A stretch of 64,000 nucleotides of DNA from an uncultured Actinomycetes bacterium (GTDB lineage Bacteria > Actinomycetota > UBA4738 > JACQTL01): contig CAVPQW010000011.1 of the NCBI GenBank assembly GCA_963707645.1, forward strand, positions 90,678 through 154,677, given 5' to 3'. Under the pieces are notes generated by a model. That model was given only the letters and a program-made list of their open reading frames with translations. It had not been told where the DNA came from and did no database searches. The position numbers and the translations under genes were made by a program. How positions within the stretch are numbered: position 1 is the stretch's first letter; each line of letters begins with the position of its first letter. This document shows positions 21,304 to 29,592 of the stretch, one piece after another.

Positions 21304-22971
21304 ATGTCCGATCTCCCCCCGGGGTCGCAGCTCGGCGGCTACCGGGTCGCCACCGTCCTCGGCCGGGGCGGCATGGGCGTCGTGTACCTGGCGCAGCAGC
21401 TGGCGCTCGAACGCCGGGTCGCGCTGAAGGTGATCAGCGAGGACCTCTCGCGCGACCCCGAGTTCCGCGAGCGGTTCATGCGGGAGGCGCAGGTCGCGGC
21501 GTCCCTCGACCACCGGCGGATCATCCCCGTGTTCGACGCCGGCGAGGCCGACGGGCGGCTGTTCCTCTCGATGCGGTACGTCAAGGGACTCGACCTCCGG
21601 ACGGTGCTGCAGCTCGAGGGGCCGCTCGAGCCGGAACGGGCGCTTCCGATCCTCGAGTCGGTGGGGGAGGCCCTCGACGCGGCCCACGCCCTCGGCCTGG
21701 TGCACCGCGACGTGAAGCCGGCCAACGTCCTGATCGAGGACGGGCCCGGCCCGGAATCCGAACGCGTGTTCCTGACGGACTTCGGGCTGACCAAGCGCGT
21801 CGACGCGCCGAGCGGGCTCACCCGGACGGGCATCTTCGTCGGCACGCCCGCGTACTCGTCGCCGGAGCAGTGCTCGGGGAAGCCGGTGGACGGCCGGACC
21901 GACGTGTACTCGCTGGCGTGCGTGCTGCACGAGTGCCTGGCGGGGGCGACGCCGTTCCCCCGCGACAGCGACGCGCAGGTGCTGGCGGCGCACCTGCTGG
22001 AACCGCCCCCGCGGCCGTCGGCCGTGCGGCCCGGCCTCCCGCCGGCGCTCGACGACGTGCTGGCGAAGGGCATGGCAAAGGAACCGGCCGACCGGTACGC
22101 GACGTGCGGTGAGCTGGTGGCGGCGGCCGGGGCGGCGCTGCGCGCCGCCCCGGCCGCTGCGACGGTCGAGGCGCCGGGCCCGTTCCTGCCCGCTGCTCCC
22201 ACCGAGCCGATACCGGCGGTTCCGCCGCCGGTATCGGCGGACGCCCCGACCGTGGGGGGCGTCGGGATGGAGGTGCCGCCGACGCTGGTCGGCCGCGGCG
22301 GCGTCGCTCCGCGCCGCCGCCGCGGCCTGGTCACGGTGCTCGTCCTGATCGGGATCCTCCTGGTGGGTGGCGTGATCGTGGCGCTCGCCATCGGCGGGGG
22401 CGGCGAGCCGAAGGCCGAGCCCAGCAGCGGACCGACCGACGGGGGAACGTCCACGTCGCCGACCACGGCGCCGTCCGGCGGCCCGTCCACCTCGTCGACG
22501 ACGACCGGCGGCCAGGGCGGCGCCGCCCTGGCCGCCTACACGACGGGGGTCGACGACCTCCTCGCCGAGTCCGCCGACTACCGTCAGCGGCTCGTCGACG
22601 CGGTCGTCGGCGCGAACGGCGCCAAGCGCAAGGAGCAGCGCGAGGACCTCGCCACGGTGCAGGAGGTGATCGACCAGCGGCAGTCGGCGCTCGAACAGGT
22701 CGGGTCGTGGGAGGTGCCGCCCGAGGCCGGGGCGGTCAACGACCTGCTGGCCACGGCGTTCCAGGACGCGATCGCCGACGACGAGAACTACGCCCTGCTG
22801 GTCCAGGTCTACATCGACCGCGACGACGCCGCGGCGAAGCAGATCCTCGCCGAGCTCGAGGACCACCGCGCGGCGGCCACCACGCCCGACAAGGACGCGT
22901 TCCTGCGTGGCTACAACGCGCTCCGGCAGCGGGCCGGGCTCGAGCCGCTCCCCTCGGACTTCCAGTTCTAG
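21304..22971 (+). CDS. Membrane-anchored Hanks-type Ser/Thr protein kinase
   Basis: LGRGGMGVVY, VALK, HRDVKPANVL, TDFG, GTPAYSSPE; TM helix and helical extracellular domain. Confidence 0.93.
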   Translation: MSDLPPGSQLGGYRVATVLGRGGMGVVYLAQQLALERRVALKVISEDLSRDPEFRERFMREAQVAASLDHRRIIPVFDAGEADGRLFLSMRYVKGLDLRTVLQLEGPLEPERALPILESVGEALDAAHALGLVHRDVKPANVLIEDGPGPESERVFLTDFGLTKRVDAPSGLTRTGIFVGTPAYSSPEQCSGKPVDGRTDVYSLACVLHECLAGATPFPRDSDAQVLAAHLLEPPPRPSAVRPGLPPALDDVLAKGMAKEPADRYATCGELVAAAGAALRAAPAAATVEAPGPFLPAAPTEPIPAVPPPVSADAPTVGGVGMEVPPTLVGRGGVAPRRRRGLVTVLVLIGILLVGGVIVALAIGGGGEPKAEPSSGPTDGGTSTSPTTAPSGGPSTSSTTTGGQGGAALAAYTTGVDDLLAESADYRQRLVDAVVGANGAKRKEQREDLATVQEVIDQRQSALEQVGSWEVPPEAGAVNDLLATAFQDAIADDENYALLVQVYIDRDDAAAKQILAELEDHRAAATTPDKDAFLRGYNALRQRAGLEPLPSDFQF

Positions 22972-23066
22972 CCTCCGACGGCCGGCAGACGCGCCCGACC
23001 CGTCCGAACGCGGCATTCCGACGGCTCGCATAGACTCCGACCGTCCCGACCCTGGAGGTGCGAGCC

Positions 23067-23382
23067 ATGGACCCGACCGACACCACGCTCACCGACGAGG
23101 AGATCTCCACGGTGCTCCCGGGCCAGTCGCCCGCGGCGACGATCTCCGCGGACACGGACACCACCGACCAGTCCGGCGCCGAACGCCAGGACGCCGACGA
23201 CACGGACACGACCGACCAGAAGGTCGACCAGTCCGCACCAGGACACCACCGACCAGACCGACACCGCCGACGGAACCGACGGAACCGACACCGCCGACGG
23301 CACCGACGCGGATGGAACGGACGCCGATGGCACCGACGCCGACGGCACGGACACTCAGGACGCCGACGGCACCGACGCTTAG
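23067..23382 (+). CDS. Asp/Thr-rich repeat peptide (~104 aa), putative precursor; needs removal of one base near 23236
   Basis: GGAGGTG RBS; MDPTDTTLTDEEISTV...DTDTTDQ...; the shifted frame continues DQDTTDQTDTADGTDGTDTADGTDADGTDADGTDADGTDTQDADGTDA-TAG; span is 316 nt = 105 codons + 1. Confidence 0.75.
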
Positions 23383-23392
23383 CAACCCGGAC

Positions 23393-24568
23393 GTGGGCGC
23401 CCTCGGCCGCTGCGTCGGCGACGTCGACGCGTTCCTCCGCGATGACTGGAACCGCCGGCCGGTCCACCGTTCGGGCGGGCGGCCGTTCGACGACCTGCTG
23501 TCGCTGGCCGACGTCGACCGGCTGCTCACCGAATCGACGCTCCGGCTGCCGGCGTTCCGGCTCGTCTCAGACGGCGCCACGCTCCCGACCTCCGGCTACA
23601 CGAAGTCGGGGCGGACCGGTTCACAGCCGGTCTCCGGCATGGCCGATCCCGTCCGGATCCTGGAACGCTTCGGCGACGGCGCGACGATCGTGCTCCAGGG
23701 ACTCCACCGGTACTGGCCGGCGCTCGGGCGGTTCTGCCGGGAGCTCGAGGGCCAGCTCGGACACCCCACCCAGGTGAACGCCTACATCACGCCGCCCGGC
23801 TCCCGCGGCCTCGACGTCCATCAGGACTCGCACGATGTGTTCGTCCTGCAGGCGTTCGGGCAAAAACAGTGGGACGTGTGGAACCCCCGCCCGGTCGGGG
23901 CGCCGAAGCCGTCGCCGCAAGAGCAGCCTGCCATCTCCGTGACGATGGAGCCGGGCGACGCCATGTACCTGCCGATGGGATCGCCCCACGCGGCCTCGAC
24001 CCAGACGGTGCTCTCCGGCCACCTGACCATCGGCGTCCACACGGCGACGTGGGGACAGCTCCTGGCCGAGGTGCTCGACGAGGTCCGGACCGAGCCGGCG
24101 TTCGCCGAGCCGCTCGCTCCCGGGTGGCACCGCGACCCGGACGGGTTCGCCACCGCGATGAAGGAACGCTTGGCCGACCTGCAGCGATCGCTCGACGGCG
24201 TGGACGCCGCCGCGGTGGCCGACCGGCGCATCCGGTCGTTCCTGACGACCCGGCTGCCGTCGCTGGGCGGCGCGCTGGTGGACCTCGCGCGACTCGACGA
24301 GCTCACGTCCGACTCCCGGGTGCGGCGACGTCGTGCTTCGTTCTGCGAGGTCCGCGTCGAGGGCGACGAGCTCGCGGTGTTCCTCGGCGACCGCGAGCTG
24401 CGGATGCCGGCCCGCGTGGAACCGGCGATGCGATTCGTGGCGGAGCAGGTCCCGGGCGGGGCCCCGTTCCGACCGGCGGACGTTCCCGGGCTGGACGACG
24501 GCGGGCGGATGGTGCTGGCCCGGCGGCTGGTCCGCGAAGGGCTGCTCGAGCTCGCCGACCGGGAGTGA
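23393..24568 (+). CDS. JmjC/cupin_4 (ROX: YcfD/NO66-like) 2-oxoglutarate/Fe(II) oxygenase
   Basis: NAYITPPGSRGLDVHQDSHDVFVLQAFGQKQW (HxD, K) and YLPMGSPH distal His; C-terminal winged-helix-like RRLVREGLL. Start uncertain. Confidence 0.88.
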   Translation: MGALGRCVGDVDAFLRDDWNRRPVHRSGGRPFDDLLSLADVDRLLTESTLRLPAFRLVSDGATLPTSGYTKSGRTGSQPVSGMADPVRILERFGDGATIVLQGLHRYWPALGRFCRELEGQLGHPTQVNAYITPPGSRGLDVHQDSHDVFVLQAFGQKQWDVWNPRPVGAPKPSPQEQPAISVTMEPGDAMYLPMGSPHAASTQTVLSGHLTIGVHTATWGQLLAEVLDEVRTEPAFAEPLAPGWHRDPDGFATAMKERLADLQRSLDGVDAAAVADRRIRSFLTTRLPSLGGALVDLARLDELTSDSRVRRRRASFCEVRVEGDELAVFLGDRELRMPARVEPAMRFVAEQVPGGAPFRPADVPGLDDGGRMVLARRLVREGLLELADRE

Positions 24569-25467
24569 GCACGCCGGAGCGCTGCTCGGCGACCTCCCGC
24601 GCCCTCGGCGAGTCGCTGTGGGGCACGGCATCGACCGTCGTCAACTGGCTGCTCGTCGAGGAACCCGGCCCGTGGGGCACCAAGGCGCTCGAGCACAGCC
24701 GCCTGCCGGAGCAGGTGGCAGCGCACCTCCGCCGGCAGCGCCGGGAGCACGGCGTTCGGATCGTGCTCATCCGCCGCCACGGCCGGCACGTCCCCGACGG
24801 CATCCAGGTGTACGCGGCGCACGCGGGGCTCCGCGCCCGGTGGCTCGAGCACGTCCACCTCCCCGGGCCCGAGGCGCTGCTCGACGTCGACCTCGGGCCG
24901 ATGCGGCGCGGCAGCCGGCTCGGTCTCGGCACCGGGCAGGCCGAGCAGATCTATCTCGTCTGCACGAACGGCCGGCACGACCCGTGCTGCTCCGAGCGGG
25001 GCCGCCCCGTGGCGAACGCCCTGCAGGAGGCCTTGGGCGACCGGGTGTGGGAGGTCAGCCACATCGGCGGCGACCGGTTCGCGCCGAACGTCGTGTGTCT
25101 CCCGGCCGGGGTGTACCTCGGCCGGGTGGAGCCCGACGAGGCGGTGGCGGTCGTGGGCCGGTTCGACCGCGGCGAGGTCGACCTCGACCGCTACCGGGGC
25201 CGCTGCGCGTACGACTTCGCGACGCAGGCGGCCGATGCGTTCCTCCGGCAGCACACCGGCGTCGCCGGGCTCGACGACGTCGCGCTCACCCGGCGCATCC
25301 CGCTCCCCGACGACGGCGTCGAGGCGACGTTCGCGGTCGCCGAGGGCGCGACGTACTCGGTTCGGGTCGAGGTCGGCCACCCCGGGCCGGAGCGCCGCAT
25401 CACGTGCGGCGGCGACCCGGGCACGGCGCCCCCCGCCTACCGCCTGGTGTCGATCGACGAGCGCTGA
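24565..25467 (+). CDS. Sucrase/ferredoxin-like (thioredoxin-like Fe-S) protein
   Basis: WLLVEEPGPWG; LVCTNGRHDPCC (CX8C); WEVSHIGGDRFAPN; GTGA overlap with the cupin stop. Confidence 0.85.
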   Translation: MSTPERCSATSRALGESLWGTASTVVNWLLVEEPGPWGTKALEHSRLPEQVAAHLRRQRREHGVRIVLIRRHGRHVPDGIQVYAAHAGLRARWLEHVHLPGPEALLDVDLGPMRRGSRLGLGTGQAEQIYLVCTNGRHDPCCSERGRPVANALQEALGDRVWEVSHIGGDRFAPNVVCLPAGVYLGRVEPDEAVAVVGRFDRGEVDLDRYRGRCAYDFATQAADAFLRQHTGVAGLDDVALTRRIPLPDDGVEATFAVAEGATYSVRVEVGHPGPERRITCGGDPGTAPPAYRLVSIDER

Positions 25468-27956
25468 CCGGGCTCCAGCGGCAGGCTCGCGGCGGCGCGT
25501 TCGTCCGCGGGGTCGCGCGGCGTCGGCTCGGGGAGCGAAGCCTTGGGCATCCCCGGCCAGTGGCTGAACCGCCCGAACAGCGTCATCAGCGACGGCACGA
25601 GCAGGGACCGGACGAGGAACGAGTCGATCAGCACGCCCACGCACATCGCGAAGGCGAACTCCCGGAACGGCACGAGCGGCACGAGCGCCAGCAGGGCGAA
25701 CGACCCGGCGAGCGCCAGGCCGGCGACGCCGATGGCCCGGCTGGCCCGGGGCGCCGCGATCCGGATCGCCTCGCGCAGCGGCCGCGTCCTCGCCTCCTGC
25801 CAGATCCGGCCGACGACGAACACGTTGTAGTCCGACCCGAGCGCCACCAGCAGGACGGCCGCCGCGAACGGCACGTAGTAGGTGAGCCCCGGGTGGCCGA
25901 GCCAGTCCTGGAACACGAGCGTGGTCAGCCCGAGCGCCGCCGCGACCACGAGCGCGCTCACCGCGAGCAGGTACAGCGGCGCGATCAGGGCGCGCAGGAA
26001 CAGCGCGAGCAGCACGAGGTCGACCAGCAGGGCGGCGACCGCGATCGCGCCGAGGCCGTCGAGCGTCCGGTTCACCGTCTCGAGCGCCAGCGCCGAGTCC
26101 CCGGCGAATTCCGCCGTGACGCCCGTCAGCCCGGCTTCCACCATGAGCGCCGGAACGCGGGCCTGGAGGTCCTCGATGTGGTGGAGCCCGCTCGCCCCGA
26201 GCGGGTCGCGGTCGAGGATCACCACCAGGCGGGACGCCGTCCCGTCCTTCGACGAAAACACGTTCCCGGTGACCCCGTCCGGAAGCGTTCCGCCGCCGAT
26301 CACGCCGGAAACGCCGGGCTCGCGGTCCATCAGGACGCCGAGCCGCGCGACCTGGTCCTGCTTCGACGCCATGTCCTGCCCCACGAGGAGGATCTCGGTC
26401 GGCGAGGTGATCCCGGGCGCGAACCCCTCGCCGGCCGCGGCCGATGCGACGGACGGCTCGGAGTCGTCCGGCAGCTCGTCCGGGAGGCTGATGCCGAGCC
26501 CGGCGCCCCGGAGGAAGCTCGCGGCGAACAGCAGCCCGGCCAGCATGACGAGCGACACCACCGCGGCGACCGGCTTGCGGGTGACCGCGCGGACCATGCC
26601 GCCGCGCCAGCCCCGCGTGACCTCTGGCTCGGGCGGTGCGGCGCCTCCTTCGGCGTCCACCGGCGCCGGCGCACCCGGCGCCGCCTGGACGTGGCCGGGC
26701 TCGGGCGGCGAGGTGGCTCCGACTTGAGGATCGATTGCCGGTGGAGCAGCGGCCTTCGGCGGCGCGGACGGCCAGAACAGCCCCCGGCCGAACGTGGCCA
26801 TGAGCGCGGGAACGAACGTGATCGACACCGCGAGGCCGATGGCAACCGTGATGGCGAGGCCCGGGCCGAGGGCCCGGAAGAACGACAGCGACGTCACGAC
26901 GAGCGCGGCGGTCGCCGCCGCCACGACCATGCCGGCCGTGAGGATGATCCGGGCCAGCTCGCCGGTCGCCGCCTTCGCCGCCTGCACCGCGGGCCGGCCC
27001 TCGGCCAGCCGGGTCCGCATCCCGGACAGGAAGAAGATCGTGTAATCGGTCACGATGCCGAGCAGCAGCACCACCACGAGCGGTTCGATCTCCTGCGGCA
27101 CGGCGACCTTCGTCTGCTGCCCGAGCCACACGAGCACGGGGATCGTCACCATGTACGCGACGCCGGCCGCCGCCAGCGTGACGAGCGGCGCCACGATCGA
27201 GCGGAAGTGCAGCCCGACGATCAGCGCGATCAGCACCACGGTGGCGAGCTCGACCCACGGCAGGCCCTTCGTGACGAGGTCGCCCTCGAGCGCCCGGGCC
27301 GGCACCGCGCCGGTGAGCCCGACCAGGTGGTCGTCCGGCTCGGTGATCTCGCGGTCCACGTACTGCTCCGCGACCGCGCGCTGGTCGTAGATGTTCAGGT
27401 CCGGATTGACGAACAGGTAGGTGACGCCGGTGGTCGAGTTCTCCCGGGAGCCGGGGACGAGCTTCCCGGTGTTGAGGATCGGGATCGATCCGAGCACATG
27501 GGGGTACTTCGCCTTCAGCAGACCGCGGTCGAGGTCGGCCGCCCGGGCGACCACCCGCGCTTGGGCCTGGGTCGTCAGGCCCTGCTCGTCGCGCTGCACG
27601 ATCTGGATCCGCGAGAACAGCGGGAACCCGAACTTCTCGACGATGGTCTGCTCCGCGGCCACCGCCCTGGAGTCCTTCGGAACGAGCGAGTTGAGCGACG
27701 ACGCCTCGGTGTCGTTCAGCCCCGGCAGGAACACGGTGGCCAGGACGGCAGCCACGATCCAGGCCGGCACGAACAGGAACCGCAGGTGGACGACGAGCCA
27801 CGCGAGCCCGCGCGCGAACAGTCCGGCCCGTTCGTGGGCCTGCTGCTGTCGCTGTGTTCTCTGGGGCGCAGATGACGGAGGCGGGGCCGGTTCCTCACCG
27901 ACCGGCCCGTTCGCCTCGCCTTCCGTGCCCGCATCGGAAGGACGGCGTCGACTCAT
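25437..27956 (-). CDS. MMPL family (RND) transporter
   Basis: Two TM-rich halves with [13 protein letters not shown] and [10 protein letters not shown] motifs. Confidence 0.88.
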
Positions 27957-28011
27957 CTGGACTCACTACCCGGCGCCGGCCCGGCTGAACCCGGGGCGGT
28001 ACCCTTCGGAC

Positions 28012-29592
28012 ATGGCCGACGACGAGCGACGCGTGACGGATTCCGGCATCGAGATCCGTCCGCTGTACGACGGCGTGGAAGGGCTCGACCCCGAACGCGA
28101 CCTGGGCGCGCCCGGCCAAGCGCCGTTCACTCGCGGGGTCTACCCGTCGATGTACCGCGGCCGGTTGTGGACCATGCGGCAGTACGCGGGCATGGGCACC
28201 GCCGACGACACCAACCGGCGGTTCCGCTATCTGCTCGACCGGGGGCAGACCGGGCTCAGCGTCGCCTTCGACCTGCCGACCCAGATGGGCTACGACTCGG
28301 ACCACCCGCGCGCCGAGGGCGAGGTCGGCAAGACCGGCGTGGCGATCGACTCCATCGACGACATGCGTCGGCTGTTCGCCGAGATCCCGCTCGACCAGGT
28401 CACGACGTCGATGACGATCAACGCGACGGCGGGGATCCTGCTGCTGCTCTACGAGCTCGTCGCCGAGGAACAGGGCGTCGGCCCCGACCGCATCGGCGGC
28501 ACCGTCCAGAACGACATCCTCAAGGAGTACGCGGCGCGGGGGACGTACATCTACCCGCCGAAGCCGTCGATGCGGCTCATCACCGACCTGTTCGCGTACT
28601 GCGGCGAGCGCACCCCGCGGTGGAACACGATCTCGATCTCCGGCTACCACATGCGCGAGGCCGGCTCGACCGCGGTGCAGGAGGTTGCGTTCACGCTGGC
28701 GAACGGCATCGCCTACGTGCAGGCCGCCCTGGATGCCGGGCTCGCTTTGGACGAGTTCGCCCCGCGGCTGTCGTTCTTCTTCGCCTGCCACATGAACTTC
28801 TTCGAGGAGGTCGCGAAGTTCCGCGCCGCGCGCCGAATGTGGGCGAAGGTCATGACCGAACGGTTCGGCGCCGTCGACCCGAAGAGCGTCATGCTCCGGT
28901 TCCACACGCAGACGGGCGGCGCCACGCTCACCGCCCAGCAGCCAGAGGTGAACATCGTGCGGACGGCGCTCGAGGCGCTCGCGGCGGTGCTCGGCGGGAC
29001 GCAGTCGCTGCACACGAACTCGTTCGACGAGGCCCTCGCGCTCCCGACCGAGAAGGCCGTGAAGATCGCGCTGCGAACCCAGCAGGTGCTCGGGTACGAG
29101 AGCGGCGTGGTGGACACGCCGGACCCGCTCGGCGGCTCCTACCTCGTCGAGACCCTGACCAACGAGATCGAGCAGCGGGCGTGGGAGTACATCGAGAAGA
29201 TCGACGGGATGGGCGGCGCCGTCCAGGCGATCGAGGCCGGCTTCTACCAGGACGAGATCGCCGACGCCGCGTACCGCATCACCCAGGGCGTCGAGTCCGG
29301 ATCACGCCCGGTCGTCAGCGTGAACAAGTTCGTCGACGTGGAAGAGGACTCGGTCGAGATCCAGACGATCGACGAGGCTGAGGTCCGCAAGCAGGTGGAA
29401 CGGGTCCGAGAGCTCCGGGCGACGCGCGACCAGGCCGCGGTCGACGAGGCGCTGCGGCAGGTCGACGAGACGGCCCGGAGCGATGGCAACCTCCTGATTC
29501 CGATGCGCGATGCCTTGCAGGCCCGGGCCACGCTCGGCGAGGTCAGCGACGTGCTCCGCGGCGTGTTCGGCGAGTACCGGCCCTCGCACTGA
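28012..29592 (+). CDS. Methylmalonyl-CoA mutase, stand-alone substrate-binding (large) subunit
   Basis: [51 protein letters not shown]; no DxHxxG B12-binding domain. Confidence 0.9.

Follow-up and report, generated by a model that had tools for sequence, protein, structure and literature searches.

Gene content of the locus and the reading frame of gene 1

We analysed three adjacent genes in a 64,000-nucleotide (nt) stretch of contig CAVPQW010000011.1, hereafter called the window, from an uncultured Actinomycetes bacterium. The source genome is an assembly of 3.4 Mb in 16 contigs that is 69% complete, and the GC content of the window is high (0.68-0.76). The genes lie on the plus strand at 23054-25467 and encode an acidic repeat peptide, a JmjC oxygenase and an iron-sulphur (Fe-S) protein. 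The stop codon of gene 1 (TAG, 23380-23382) is separated by a 10-nt gap from the GTG at 23393 that opens the JmjC frame, and the stop codon of gene 2 (TGA, 24566-24568) overlaps the start codon of gene 3 (GTG at 24565) in the sequence GTGA. Gene 3 ends at 25467, so that the whole cassette occupies about 2.4 kb. A preliminary description of this DNA had proposed a same-strand three-gene unit with this gap and overlap, and the coordinates of the open reading frames (ORFs) bear it out. The position at which it had let the unit begin, 23054, is the beginning of a Shine-Dalgarno sequence (GGAGG, 23054-23058), and the start codon is the ATG at 23067. The three genes and the features of gene 1 are as follows.

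23067..23382, plus strand: gene 1, acidic repeat peptide (104 amino acids without base 23235; two frames as given)
23393..24568, plus strand: gene 2, ROX-type JmjC 2-oxoglutarate (2OG) oxygenase (391 amino acids from GTG 23393, the presumed start codon)
24565..25467, plus strand: gene 3, Suc_Fer-like protein of 300 amino acids with a central thioredoxin-like [2Fe-2S] ferredoxin domain
23054..23060, plus strand: Shine-Dalgarno sequence GGAGGTG, with a 6-nt spacer to the gene 1 ATG, invariant in 4/4 close loci
23079..23120, plus strand: conserved leader-like N-terminal motif (residues 5-18, DTTLTDEEISTVLP)
23151..23379, plus strand: Asp/Thr/Gly repeat region, putative core (DTDTTDQ, then ADGTD units)
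23235, plus strand: extra base breaking the frame of gene 1, absent from the spanning contigs of public runs X1, X2, X3 and X15

Gene 1 is split in the window. The frame opened by the ATG at 23067 reads MDPTDTTLTDEEISTV...DQKVDQS over 56 codons (to 23234) and then continues as Arg-rich junk to 23777, and the ADGTD repeat part (23236-23382) is read in the +1 frame relative to the N-terminal part. When base 23235 is removed, the two frames fuse into 104 codons. The region 22950-23650 was compared with public sequencing runs, namely three DNA runs, each of a separate study, and one metatranscriptome; the comparison was made with contigs only, and depth, transcript ends and uncovered parts are uninformative. 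Base 23235 was missing in the single contig that spans the site in each of the four runs. The closest relatives (L001-L003, with oxygenases 74-78% identical to gene 2) carry one intact ORF of 86-104 amino acids. Because the base is absent in 4/4 runs and the ORFs of these relatives are intact, the frame shift is most likely an insertion error of the incomplete assembly or a private mutation. The preliminary description of gene 1 as a single ORF of about 104 amino acids therefore holds without base 23235, whereas the window as given has the ORF divided between two frames. Its count of about 30 Asp agrees with the 29 (12 + 17) that we found in the translations of the two peptide pieces, and the N-terminal sequence TLTDEEISTV and the DTDTTDQ/ADGTD repeats that it had named are present in them.

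Strain differences within the repeat region keep the frame: X1 lacks 27 nt at 23257, and X2 has 3 nt inserted at 23330. The two halves of gene 1 have GC contents at third codon positions (GC3) of 0.98 and 0.85. A contig of the metatranscriptome matches 23052-23258 with zero mismatches; this is a weak hint of gene 1 expression, because RNA libraries can contain DNA. Sampled words of the sequence were found in soil and rhizosphere runs (shares 0.12-0.52), from which we draw no habitat claim beyond the four runs.

Conservation of the cassette across Actinomycetota

Oxygenase homologues 42-78% identical to gene 2 defined 80 related loci, 78 with upstream DNA and 2 without, which span Nocardioidaceae, Jiangellaceae, Egibacteraceae, Acidimicrobiales and further Actinomycetota. 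Cultured Nocardioides and Marmoricola strains are among the carriers of the cassette (L028, L045, L053, L059, L066), with Nocardioides ferulae at L028, Marmoricola sp. URHB0036 at L045 and Nocardioides agri at L059. In 76 of the 78 loci, a same-strand ORF lies directly upstream of the oxygenase gene and encodes a conserved N-terminal motif followed by Asp-rich repeats. Among 618 size-matched control stretches, drawn from both strands of the flanks of these loci, one contained the motif together with an acidic ORF, and 21 contained acidic frames as such (at least 12 Asp or Glu per 30 residues). The arrangement expected of the precursor of a peptide made by the ribosome and then modified post-translationally (RiPP), that is a short gene, co-oriented with and next to that of the enzyme, in which the leader is conserved and the core varies, was thus observed in these 76 loci. 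In the two loci that did not score, L009 and L049, runs of N cover the N-terminal part of the peptide, and the repeats are visible in L009.

The peptide ORF is intact in 75 loci and ends between -32 and 161 nt from the start of the JmjC match, mostly 0-47 nt. The N-terminal consensus is MTTTPxEPLxDDD[IM]xT, in which T15 is invariant and D10 is kept in at least 90% of the aligned peptides. A Shine-Dalgarno core was present at -18 to -4 of 69 of the 76 peptide starts, compared with 15% of 3040 random windows. Mean GC3 was 0.90, and the third codon position had the highest GC content in 71/75 peptide ORFs. The motif and the repeats are joined by a linker of 10-32 residues. After the motif, the 75 peptides consist of 32% Asp, 21% Gly, 14% Thr, 13% Ala and 10% Ser with zero Cys, and the commonest dipeptide is Asp-Gly. 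Peptide length ranges from 50 to 105 amino acids, and the number of repeats varies.

The remaining peptide ORF of the 76, at L071:2676-3032 in another metagenome-assembled genome, is frame-shifted like that of the window: it starts normally (MTTPTDEPLNDDDMDTT...) and shifts to an Arg-rich frame within the repeats. Assemblies may readily acquire indel errors in repeats of this kind. When the two window pieces and six intact relatives were scanned against Pfam and NCBIfam, no family was returned for the peptide. In the ESM Atlas, the peptides occur only in Actinomycetota clusters labelled 'hypothetical protein'; the model is disordered, and its structural matches were discarded as meaningless (pLDDT, the predicted local distance difference test, 0.24). 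A double-glycine cleavage site was rejected as a defining feature, because Gly-Gly precedes the first repeat in only 27/72 peptides.

The linkage extends to more distant relatives. Among 20 loci around oxygenases of 30-45% identity, 17 have a clear upstream repeat peptide, L086 has an acidic ORF that is not repetitive, and no upstream peptide ORF was found at L095 and L096. The preliminary description had proposed checking homologous oxygenase/Suc_Fer-like gene pairs for an upstream Asp-repeat ORF, and the expectation was confirmed in both sets (76/78 close loci, 17/20 distant loci clearly). The DDD[IM]xT-like head is mostly retained in the distant peptides. Their repeat units (L083-L094), EGPADGGxNPxGHDGGADG[ST]A and PTEDDENLDxPGEHSxDTGDE, occur in 2-5 copies each. 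Asp, usually in Asp-Gly, is the sole residue common to all repeat types. His-Asp was also seen in the distant repeat types and occasionally in the Nocardioides type (e.g. DGDSHDADGTDA in L064). Co-variation between the peptide head and the third helix (alpha3) of the oxygenase C-terminal domain was considered as well. It fits L090 and L093 and is not clean, because L094 keeps the head with a diverged alpha3; the loci may belong to one clade, and we make no claim from it.

The Fe-S gene lies downstream of the oxygenase gene in 76/80 close and 13/20 distant loci. In 401 evenly sampled Actinomycetota genomes, among which related ones do not count as independent and five are unpublished, we searched for the oxygenase at E <= 1e-30 and for the Fe-S protein at E <= 1e-15. 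The oxygenase was found in 73/401 genomes (47/249 genera) and the Fe-S protein in 92/401. Both were present in 67 genomes, the oxygenase only in 6, the Fe-S protein only in 25, and neither in 303. The family f24, with genomes of 7-10 Mb, has Suc_Fer-like homologues in 9/10 members and the oxygenase in 1/10, and the Suc_Fer-like family therefore also lives apart from the cassette. Clustering of the flanking ORFs of the 80 loci revealed no other neighbour conserved across clades, the top family reaching 24/80. Flanking families included an AAA_16 protein, ABC and amino-acid permeases, P450 and FtsX; the largest cluster of flanking ORFs was an antisense-frame artefact and was set aside.

The oxygenase, the Fe-S protein and the predicted complex

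The functional sites assigned to genes 2 and 3 are as follows.

23819..23989, plus strand: active-site residues H143, D145, K158 and H199, invariant in 76/76 aligned sequences and aligned to NO66
24320..24565, plus strand: predicted docking site for the peptide N-terminal motif, from DSSP of the model and interface residues
24961..25074, plus strand: putative cluster ligands C133-X8-C142 ... H166-X3-D170, all four invariant in 64/64 sequences

Gene 2 matched Pfam JmjC_2 (PF08007) with an E-value of 5.8e-21 (74.8 bits, cut-off 22), and its sequence matches in the PDB were human NO66 (2.4e-18), MINA53 (5.9e-16) and YcfD of E. coli (2.5e-6). The Fe triad consists of H143, D145 and H199, and K158, which we take to be the 2OG-binding Lys, aligns with the Lys of NO66 in GRKLW. 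The assignment to JmjC/ROX-type oxygenases with an intact HxD...H triad, already made in the preliminary description, is upheld by the JmjC_2 match and by the invariance of the triad in 76 homologues. An AlphaFold2 (AF2) model of the L002 orthologue, which is 78% identical, had a pLDDT of 94.5. In Foldseek searches it aligned over its full length (409-456 columns) with NO66 (3.8e-26, TMq 0.67-0.71), MINA53 (1.0e-22) and YcfD (5.3e-18). The model and these matches agree in the three-domain build of a JmjC barrel, a helical domain and a C-terminal winged helix. FIH was a remote JmjC match only (2cgn, 7.6e-8, TMq 0.34), and close kinship to FIH-type Asp/Asn beta-hydroxylases was thus not seen.

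In the L002 model, DSSP assigned strands at 319-323, 326-330 and 335-339 and helices at 340-351 and 366-378 to the C-terminal domain. It has been reported that a strand and helix order like this one defines the folds of RiPP recognition elements (RREs). The same report also notes proteins of PF08007 whose folds resemble RREs and which have bacterial homologues in 'RiPP-like genomic contexts' (PMC12710340).

Gene 3 matched Pfam Suc_Fer-like (PF06999; 2.7e-20, 73.7 bits, cut-off 34.9), and a search of PDB sequences returned nothing at E 0.1. The AF2 model of the Fe-S protein (pLDDT 94.3) has extra N- and C-terminal domains. Its central part (about 100 residues) matched [2Fe-2S] ferredoxins in Foldseek, namely Azotobacter vinelandii FeSI (4.4e-4) and Aquifex ferredoxin (5.7e-4), with TMt 0.65-0.76 and a probability of 1.00 for 5abr, 1m2d and 1f37. 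The naming of gene 3 as sucrase/ferredoxin-like is thus borne out by the family match and the ferredoxin fold. The cluster motif of the Suc_Fer-like proteins Aim32 and Apd1 is reported as CX8CXnHX3H (PMC8482512). In the cassette proteins, the CX8C half is present but the second His of the bis-histidinyl motif is Asp in 64/64 sequences, and this HX3D implies a Cys2-His-Asp site.

We modelled the complex of the L002 oxygenase (76-row alignment) and residues 1-60 of the L002 peptide (75-row alignment) with Fe. The complex score was 0.74 (runs 0.75, 0.74 and 0.74), and the best of three controls reached 0.01. The score mark was reached by 58/80 solved complexes and 2/110 mismatched pairs, a calibration that is only rough here because our own alignments and a riding ligand were used. 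The three runs shared at least 37% of contacts, with a partner pLDDT of at least 45. The contacts predicted with confidence lie between the conserved head of the peptide (residues 5-10 and 12-18) and residues 285-286, 333-342 and 363-379 of the L002 oxygenase. Of these, 333-342 is the third strand (beta3), and 363-379 is alpha3, which carries the conserved RRLVREGLL stretch; in the window protein the two correspond to residues 333-342 and 366-382. The groove between beta3 and alpha3 is the place where RREs hold leaders. Co-folding of the peptide with the oxygenase, which the preliminary description had recommended, thus placed the conserved head on the enzyme. The model supports binding of the peptide head in the beta3/alpha3 groove of the winged-helix domain.

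Proposed pathway, rival explanations and surroundings of the cassette

Taken together, we consider it fairly likely that this conserved actinobacterial three-gene cassette is a minimal RiPP-like pathway in which the peptide is the leader-guided substrate of the oxygenase. The winged-helix domain would bind the peptide head as an RRE binds a leader, the head being added as a strand at beta3 and packed on alpha3 in the model. The tethered repeat tail would then be oxidised repeatedly in the JmjC active site. The likeliest reaction would be C-beta hydroxylation of Asp, because only Asp is common to all repeat types and because this suits the chemistry of the family. The co-translated [2Fe-2S] protein probably acts as a donor or acceptor of single electrons; it might, for example, return the oxygenase iron to its reduced state when turnover has been uncoupled. 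The resulting peptide would be polyanionic and intracellular, possibly hydroxylated, and plausibly one that binds metal ions. The particular chemistry and metal binding are much less likely than the substrate relation itself. In its most specific form, the ROX oxygenase would walk along the Asp-Gly tail to make a poly-(beta-hydroxy-Asp) chelator or buffer, with the Cys2-His-Asp [2Fe-2S] protein as redox partner. This form is possible but doubtful in our judgement. If it is true, the product would chelate or buffer Fe(III), Ca(II) or lanthanides, and it would represent a ribosomal peptide class without a previous name, in roughly a fifth of sampled Actinomycetota genomes.

Several observations weigh against the substrate relation or parts of it. 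In the complex model, neither the repeat tail nor the active site is confidently placed, the fold of the partner itself is uncertain (pLDDT about 46), the calibration of the score is rough as stated above, and the model was built on the L002 pair (oxygenase 78% identical) and not on the window pair. The Pfam scan of gene 2 gave no PqqD/RRE family match. The peptides of L090 and L093 are without the N-terminal motif, and L094 keeps a motif-like head though the sequence of its alpha3 has diverged. The repeat units differ so much from lineage to lineage that naming any one target residue is guesswork. Unlike classical RiPP clusters, the 80 loci have no conserved leader peptidase or exporter nearby. 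The Fe-S gene is not adjacent to the oxygenase gene in four close loci (L008, L009, L013, L017) and 7/20 distant loci, and 2OG oxygenases do not need a ferredoxin. According to PDB titles, the characterised ROX enzymes modify ribosomal proteins.

In a rival reading, the peptide would be a partner docked by its head on the winged-helix domain and not a substrate, with its polyanionic tail regulating the oxygenase as a pseudosubstrate or as a competitor of a basic protein substrate, or else delivering or buffering Fe(II) or other cations for it. The docking prediction and the tight gene linkage fit such a partner equally well, the tail is not confidently placed in the active site, and no protease or exporter is conserved nearby. 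The repeats also vary widely yet stay acidic, as expected if bulk charge matters. However, a leader followed by repeats beside an enzyme with an RRE-like domain is the usual signature of a substrate, for which the hydroxylase MppG gives a precedent (bioRxiv 10.64898/2026.10.04.756588), and the retention of Asp-Gly in all repeat types suggests a site and not charge alone. We regard this explanation as unlikely. A different possibility is that gene 2 encodes an ordinary ribosomal-protein hydroxylase like YcfD or NO66 and that the acidic peptide is unrelated and merely co-transcribed, for example as a cation buffer. The nearest solved relatives all act on ribosomal proteins, and gene 2 is the single JmjC_2 gene in the 69%-complete genome, but the linkage between peptide and oxygenase holds to about 35% identity while other neighbours change, and the complex prediction passes with controls at 0.01. 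In addition, the oxygenase is not a general ribosome-maturation factor, because only 73/401 sampled Actinomycetota genomes have it. The explanation by ribosomal hydroxylation alone is improbable in our view.

It could also be argued that gene 1 is spurious, either because a frame opened by chance in high-GC DNA rich in GAC or because the gene is a dead pseudogene in this genome. High-GC DNA yields long false ORFs in many frames, the window copy is frame-shifted, acidic frames occur in 21/618 control stretches as well, and the Pfam/NCBIfam scans found no family match. Against this stand the absence of the extra base in 4/4 runs, the 76/78 loci in which the ORF has the motif, a Shine-Dalgarno sequence and high GC3 and ends closely ahead of the oxygenase gene, and the strain indels in the repeats, which are multiples of three. 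A spurious gene 1 is very improbable.

NO66, MINA53 and YcfD share with gene 2 the JmjC_2 domain, the H-x-D...H triad, the aligned Lys and the three-domain build. They differ in that, according to PDB titles, they act as hydroxylases on His or Arg residues in ribosomal proteins, and their identity to gene 2 is about 23%. Gene 2, unlike these enzymes, is tied to a dedicated acidic peptide, and its winged helix is predicted to hold the head of that peptide. MppG of the mpp cluster in Moorena producens is described as an RRE-fused non-haem Fe/alpha-ketoglutarate hydroxylase that is leader-dependent and introduces more than one hydroxylation per precursor (bioRxiv 10.64898/2026.10.04.756588). It acts, however, on the C-beta of Trp in a 7-residue lanthionine-cyclised core with a folded 77-residue Nif11 leader, within a large cluster. 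The peptides of the cassette have a leader motif of about 16 residues and a long Asp/Gly/Thr core, and the Fe-S gene is the sole further conserved gene.

BipG of biphenomycin (PMC12707348) and CzlI of curacozole (PMC11575548) are reported as JmjC Fe/2OG side-chain hydroxylases of ribosomal precursors. Both differ from gene 2 in being tailoring enzymes of multi-enzyme clusters, with ornithine or Phe as targets. CzlI is said to resemble YxbC (1VRB) (PMC11575548), whereas gene 2 is nearest to NO66, with YxbC far behind (6.3e-14). Apd1 and Aim32 have PF06999, the thioredoxin-like ferredoxin fold and the CX8C half in common with gene 3 (PMC8482512), which differs from them in its HX3D in place of HX3H, its extra terminal domains and its operon with an oxygenase gene. 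The likeness to methanobactins and bufferins is one of idea only, in that iron-dependent oxidases make metal-binding ribosomal peptides (PMC9060507, PMC12452194). Those are the work of MNIO enzymes on Cys and bind copper (PMC9060507, PMC12452194), whereas the peptides studied here are Cys-free.

In the literature that we searched, which did not cover supplementary files, no description of a cassette combining a ROX-type oxygenase and a Suc_Fer-like protein with an Asp-repeat peptide was found. The earlier statement that no characterised pathway has this layout agrees with this result, although the logic of leader-guided 2OG/JmjC enzymes has precedent in BipG, CzlI and MppG. The enzyme logic is familiar, while the novelty lies in the substrate class and the conserved partner. 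The cassette is widely distributed and has no curated name. ROX/JmjC enzymes are known in bacteria as ribosomal-protein hydroxylases, and here a large actinobacterial branch of them is tied to its own peptide. To our knowledge, the role of the winged-helix domain of ROX enzymes is unclear; if leader binding is true, this domain would acquire a concrete function, that of a leader-binding module. Hydroxylated repeats, if they exist, would carry a widespread modification, and the product might be a gene-encoded metal-binding polymer of soil bacteria. The poorly understood Suc_Fer-like Fe-S family gains a defined bacterial partner.

A further conserved element lies in the spacer upstream of gene 1.

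23028..23037, plus strand: conserved block GCATAGACTC, ten bases invariant in the window and L001-L003, the spacer being otherwise variable

The block contains TAGACT at 23031-23036, which resembles a -10 box (TANNNT), and from this resemblance it is a candidate promoter of the cassette. A scan of 22800-25700 for sigma-70 promoters gave no promoter-like site. A single terminator-like site in the same region, on the minus strand inside gene 2, was taken as chance. In the X1 and X2 strains, single-base indels relative to the window were found in the spacer, at 22999, 23042 or 23043, and 23049; these are strain differences or further assembly errors.

A gene for a Ser/Thr protein kinase (Pkinase, 7.3e-42; 21304-22971, plus strand) ends 96 nt before gene 1, and a gene for an O-methyltransferase (Methyltransf_3; 20559-21305, minus strand) is divergent from it. 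ORF clustering placed both also upstream in L001-L003 and not in other clades. A kinase beside a Thr/Ser-Asp-rich peptide is suggestive, though clade-specific. Two long ORFs, at 17052-22112 (plus strand, 1686 amino acids) and 23821-27801 (minus strand, 1326 amino acids), are Arg/Gly/Pro-rich, overlap real genes in other frames or strands, and were rejected as high-GC artefacts. The ORF at 27421-29592 (plus strand), downstream of the cassette, may encode a methylmalonyl-CoA mutase-type large subunit, judging by its sequence motifs. A gene for an MMPL-family transporter (7.6e-73; 25437-27956, minus strand) converges on gene 3, the 3' ends overlapping by 31 nt, and an ORF cluster matching it contains only L002 among the loci listed.

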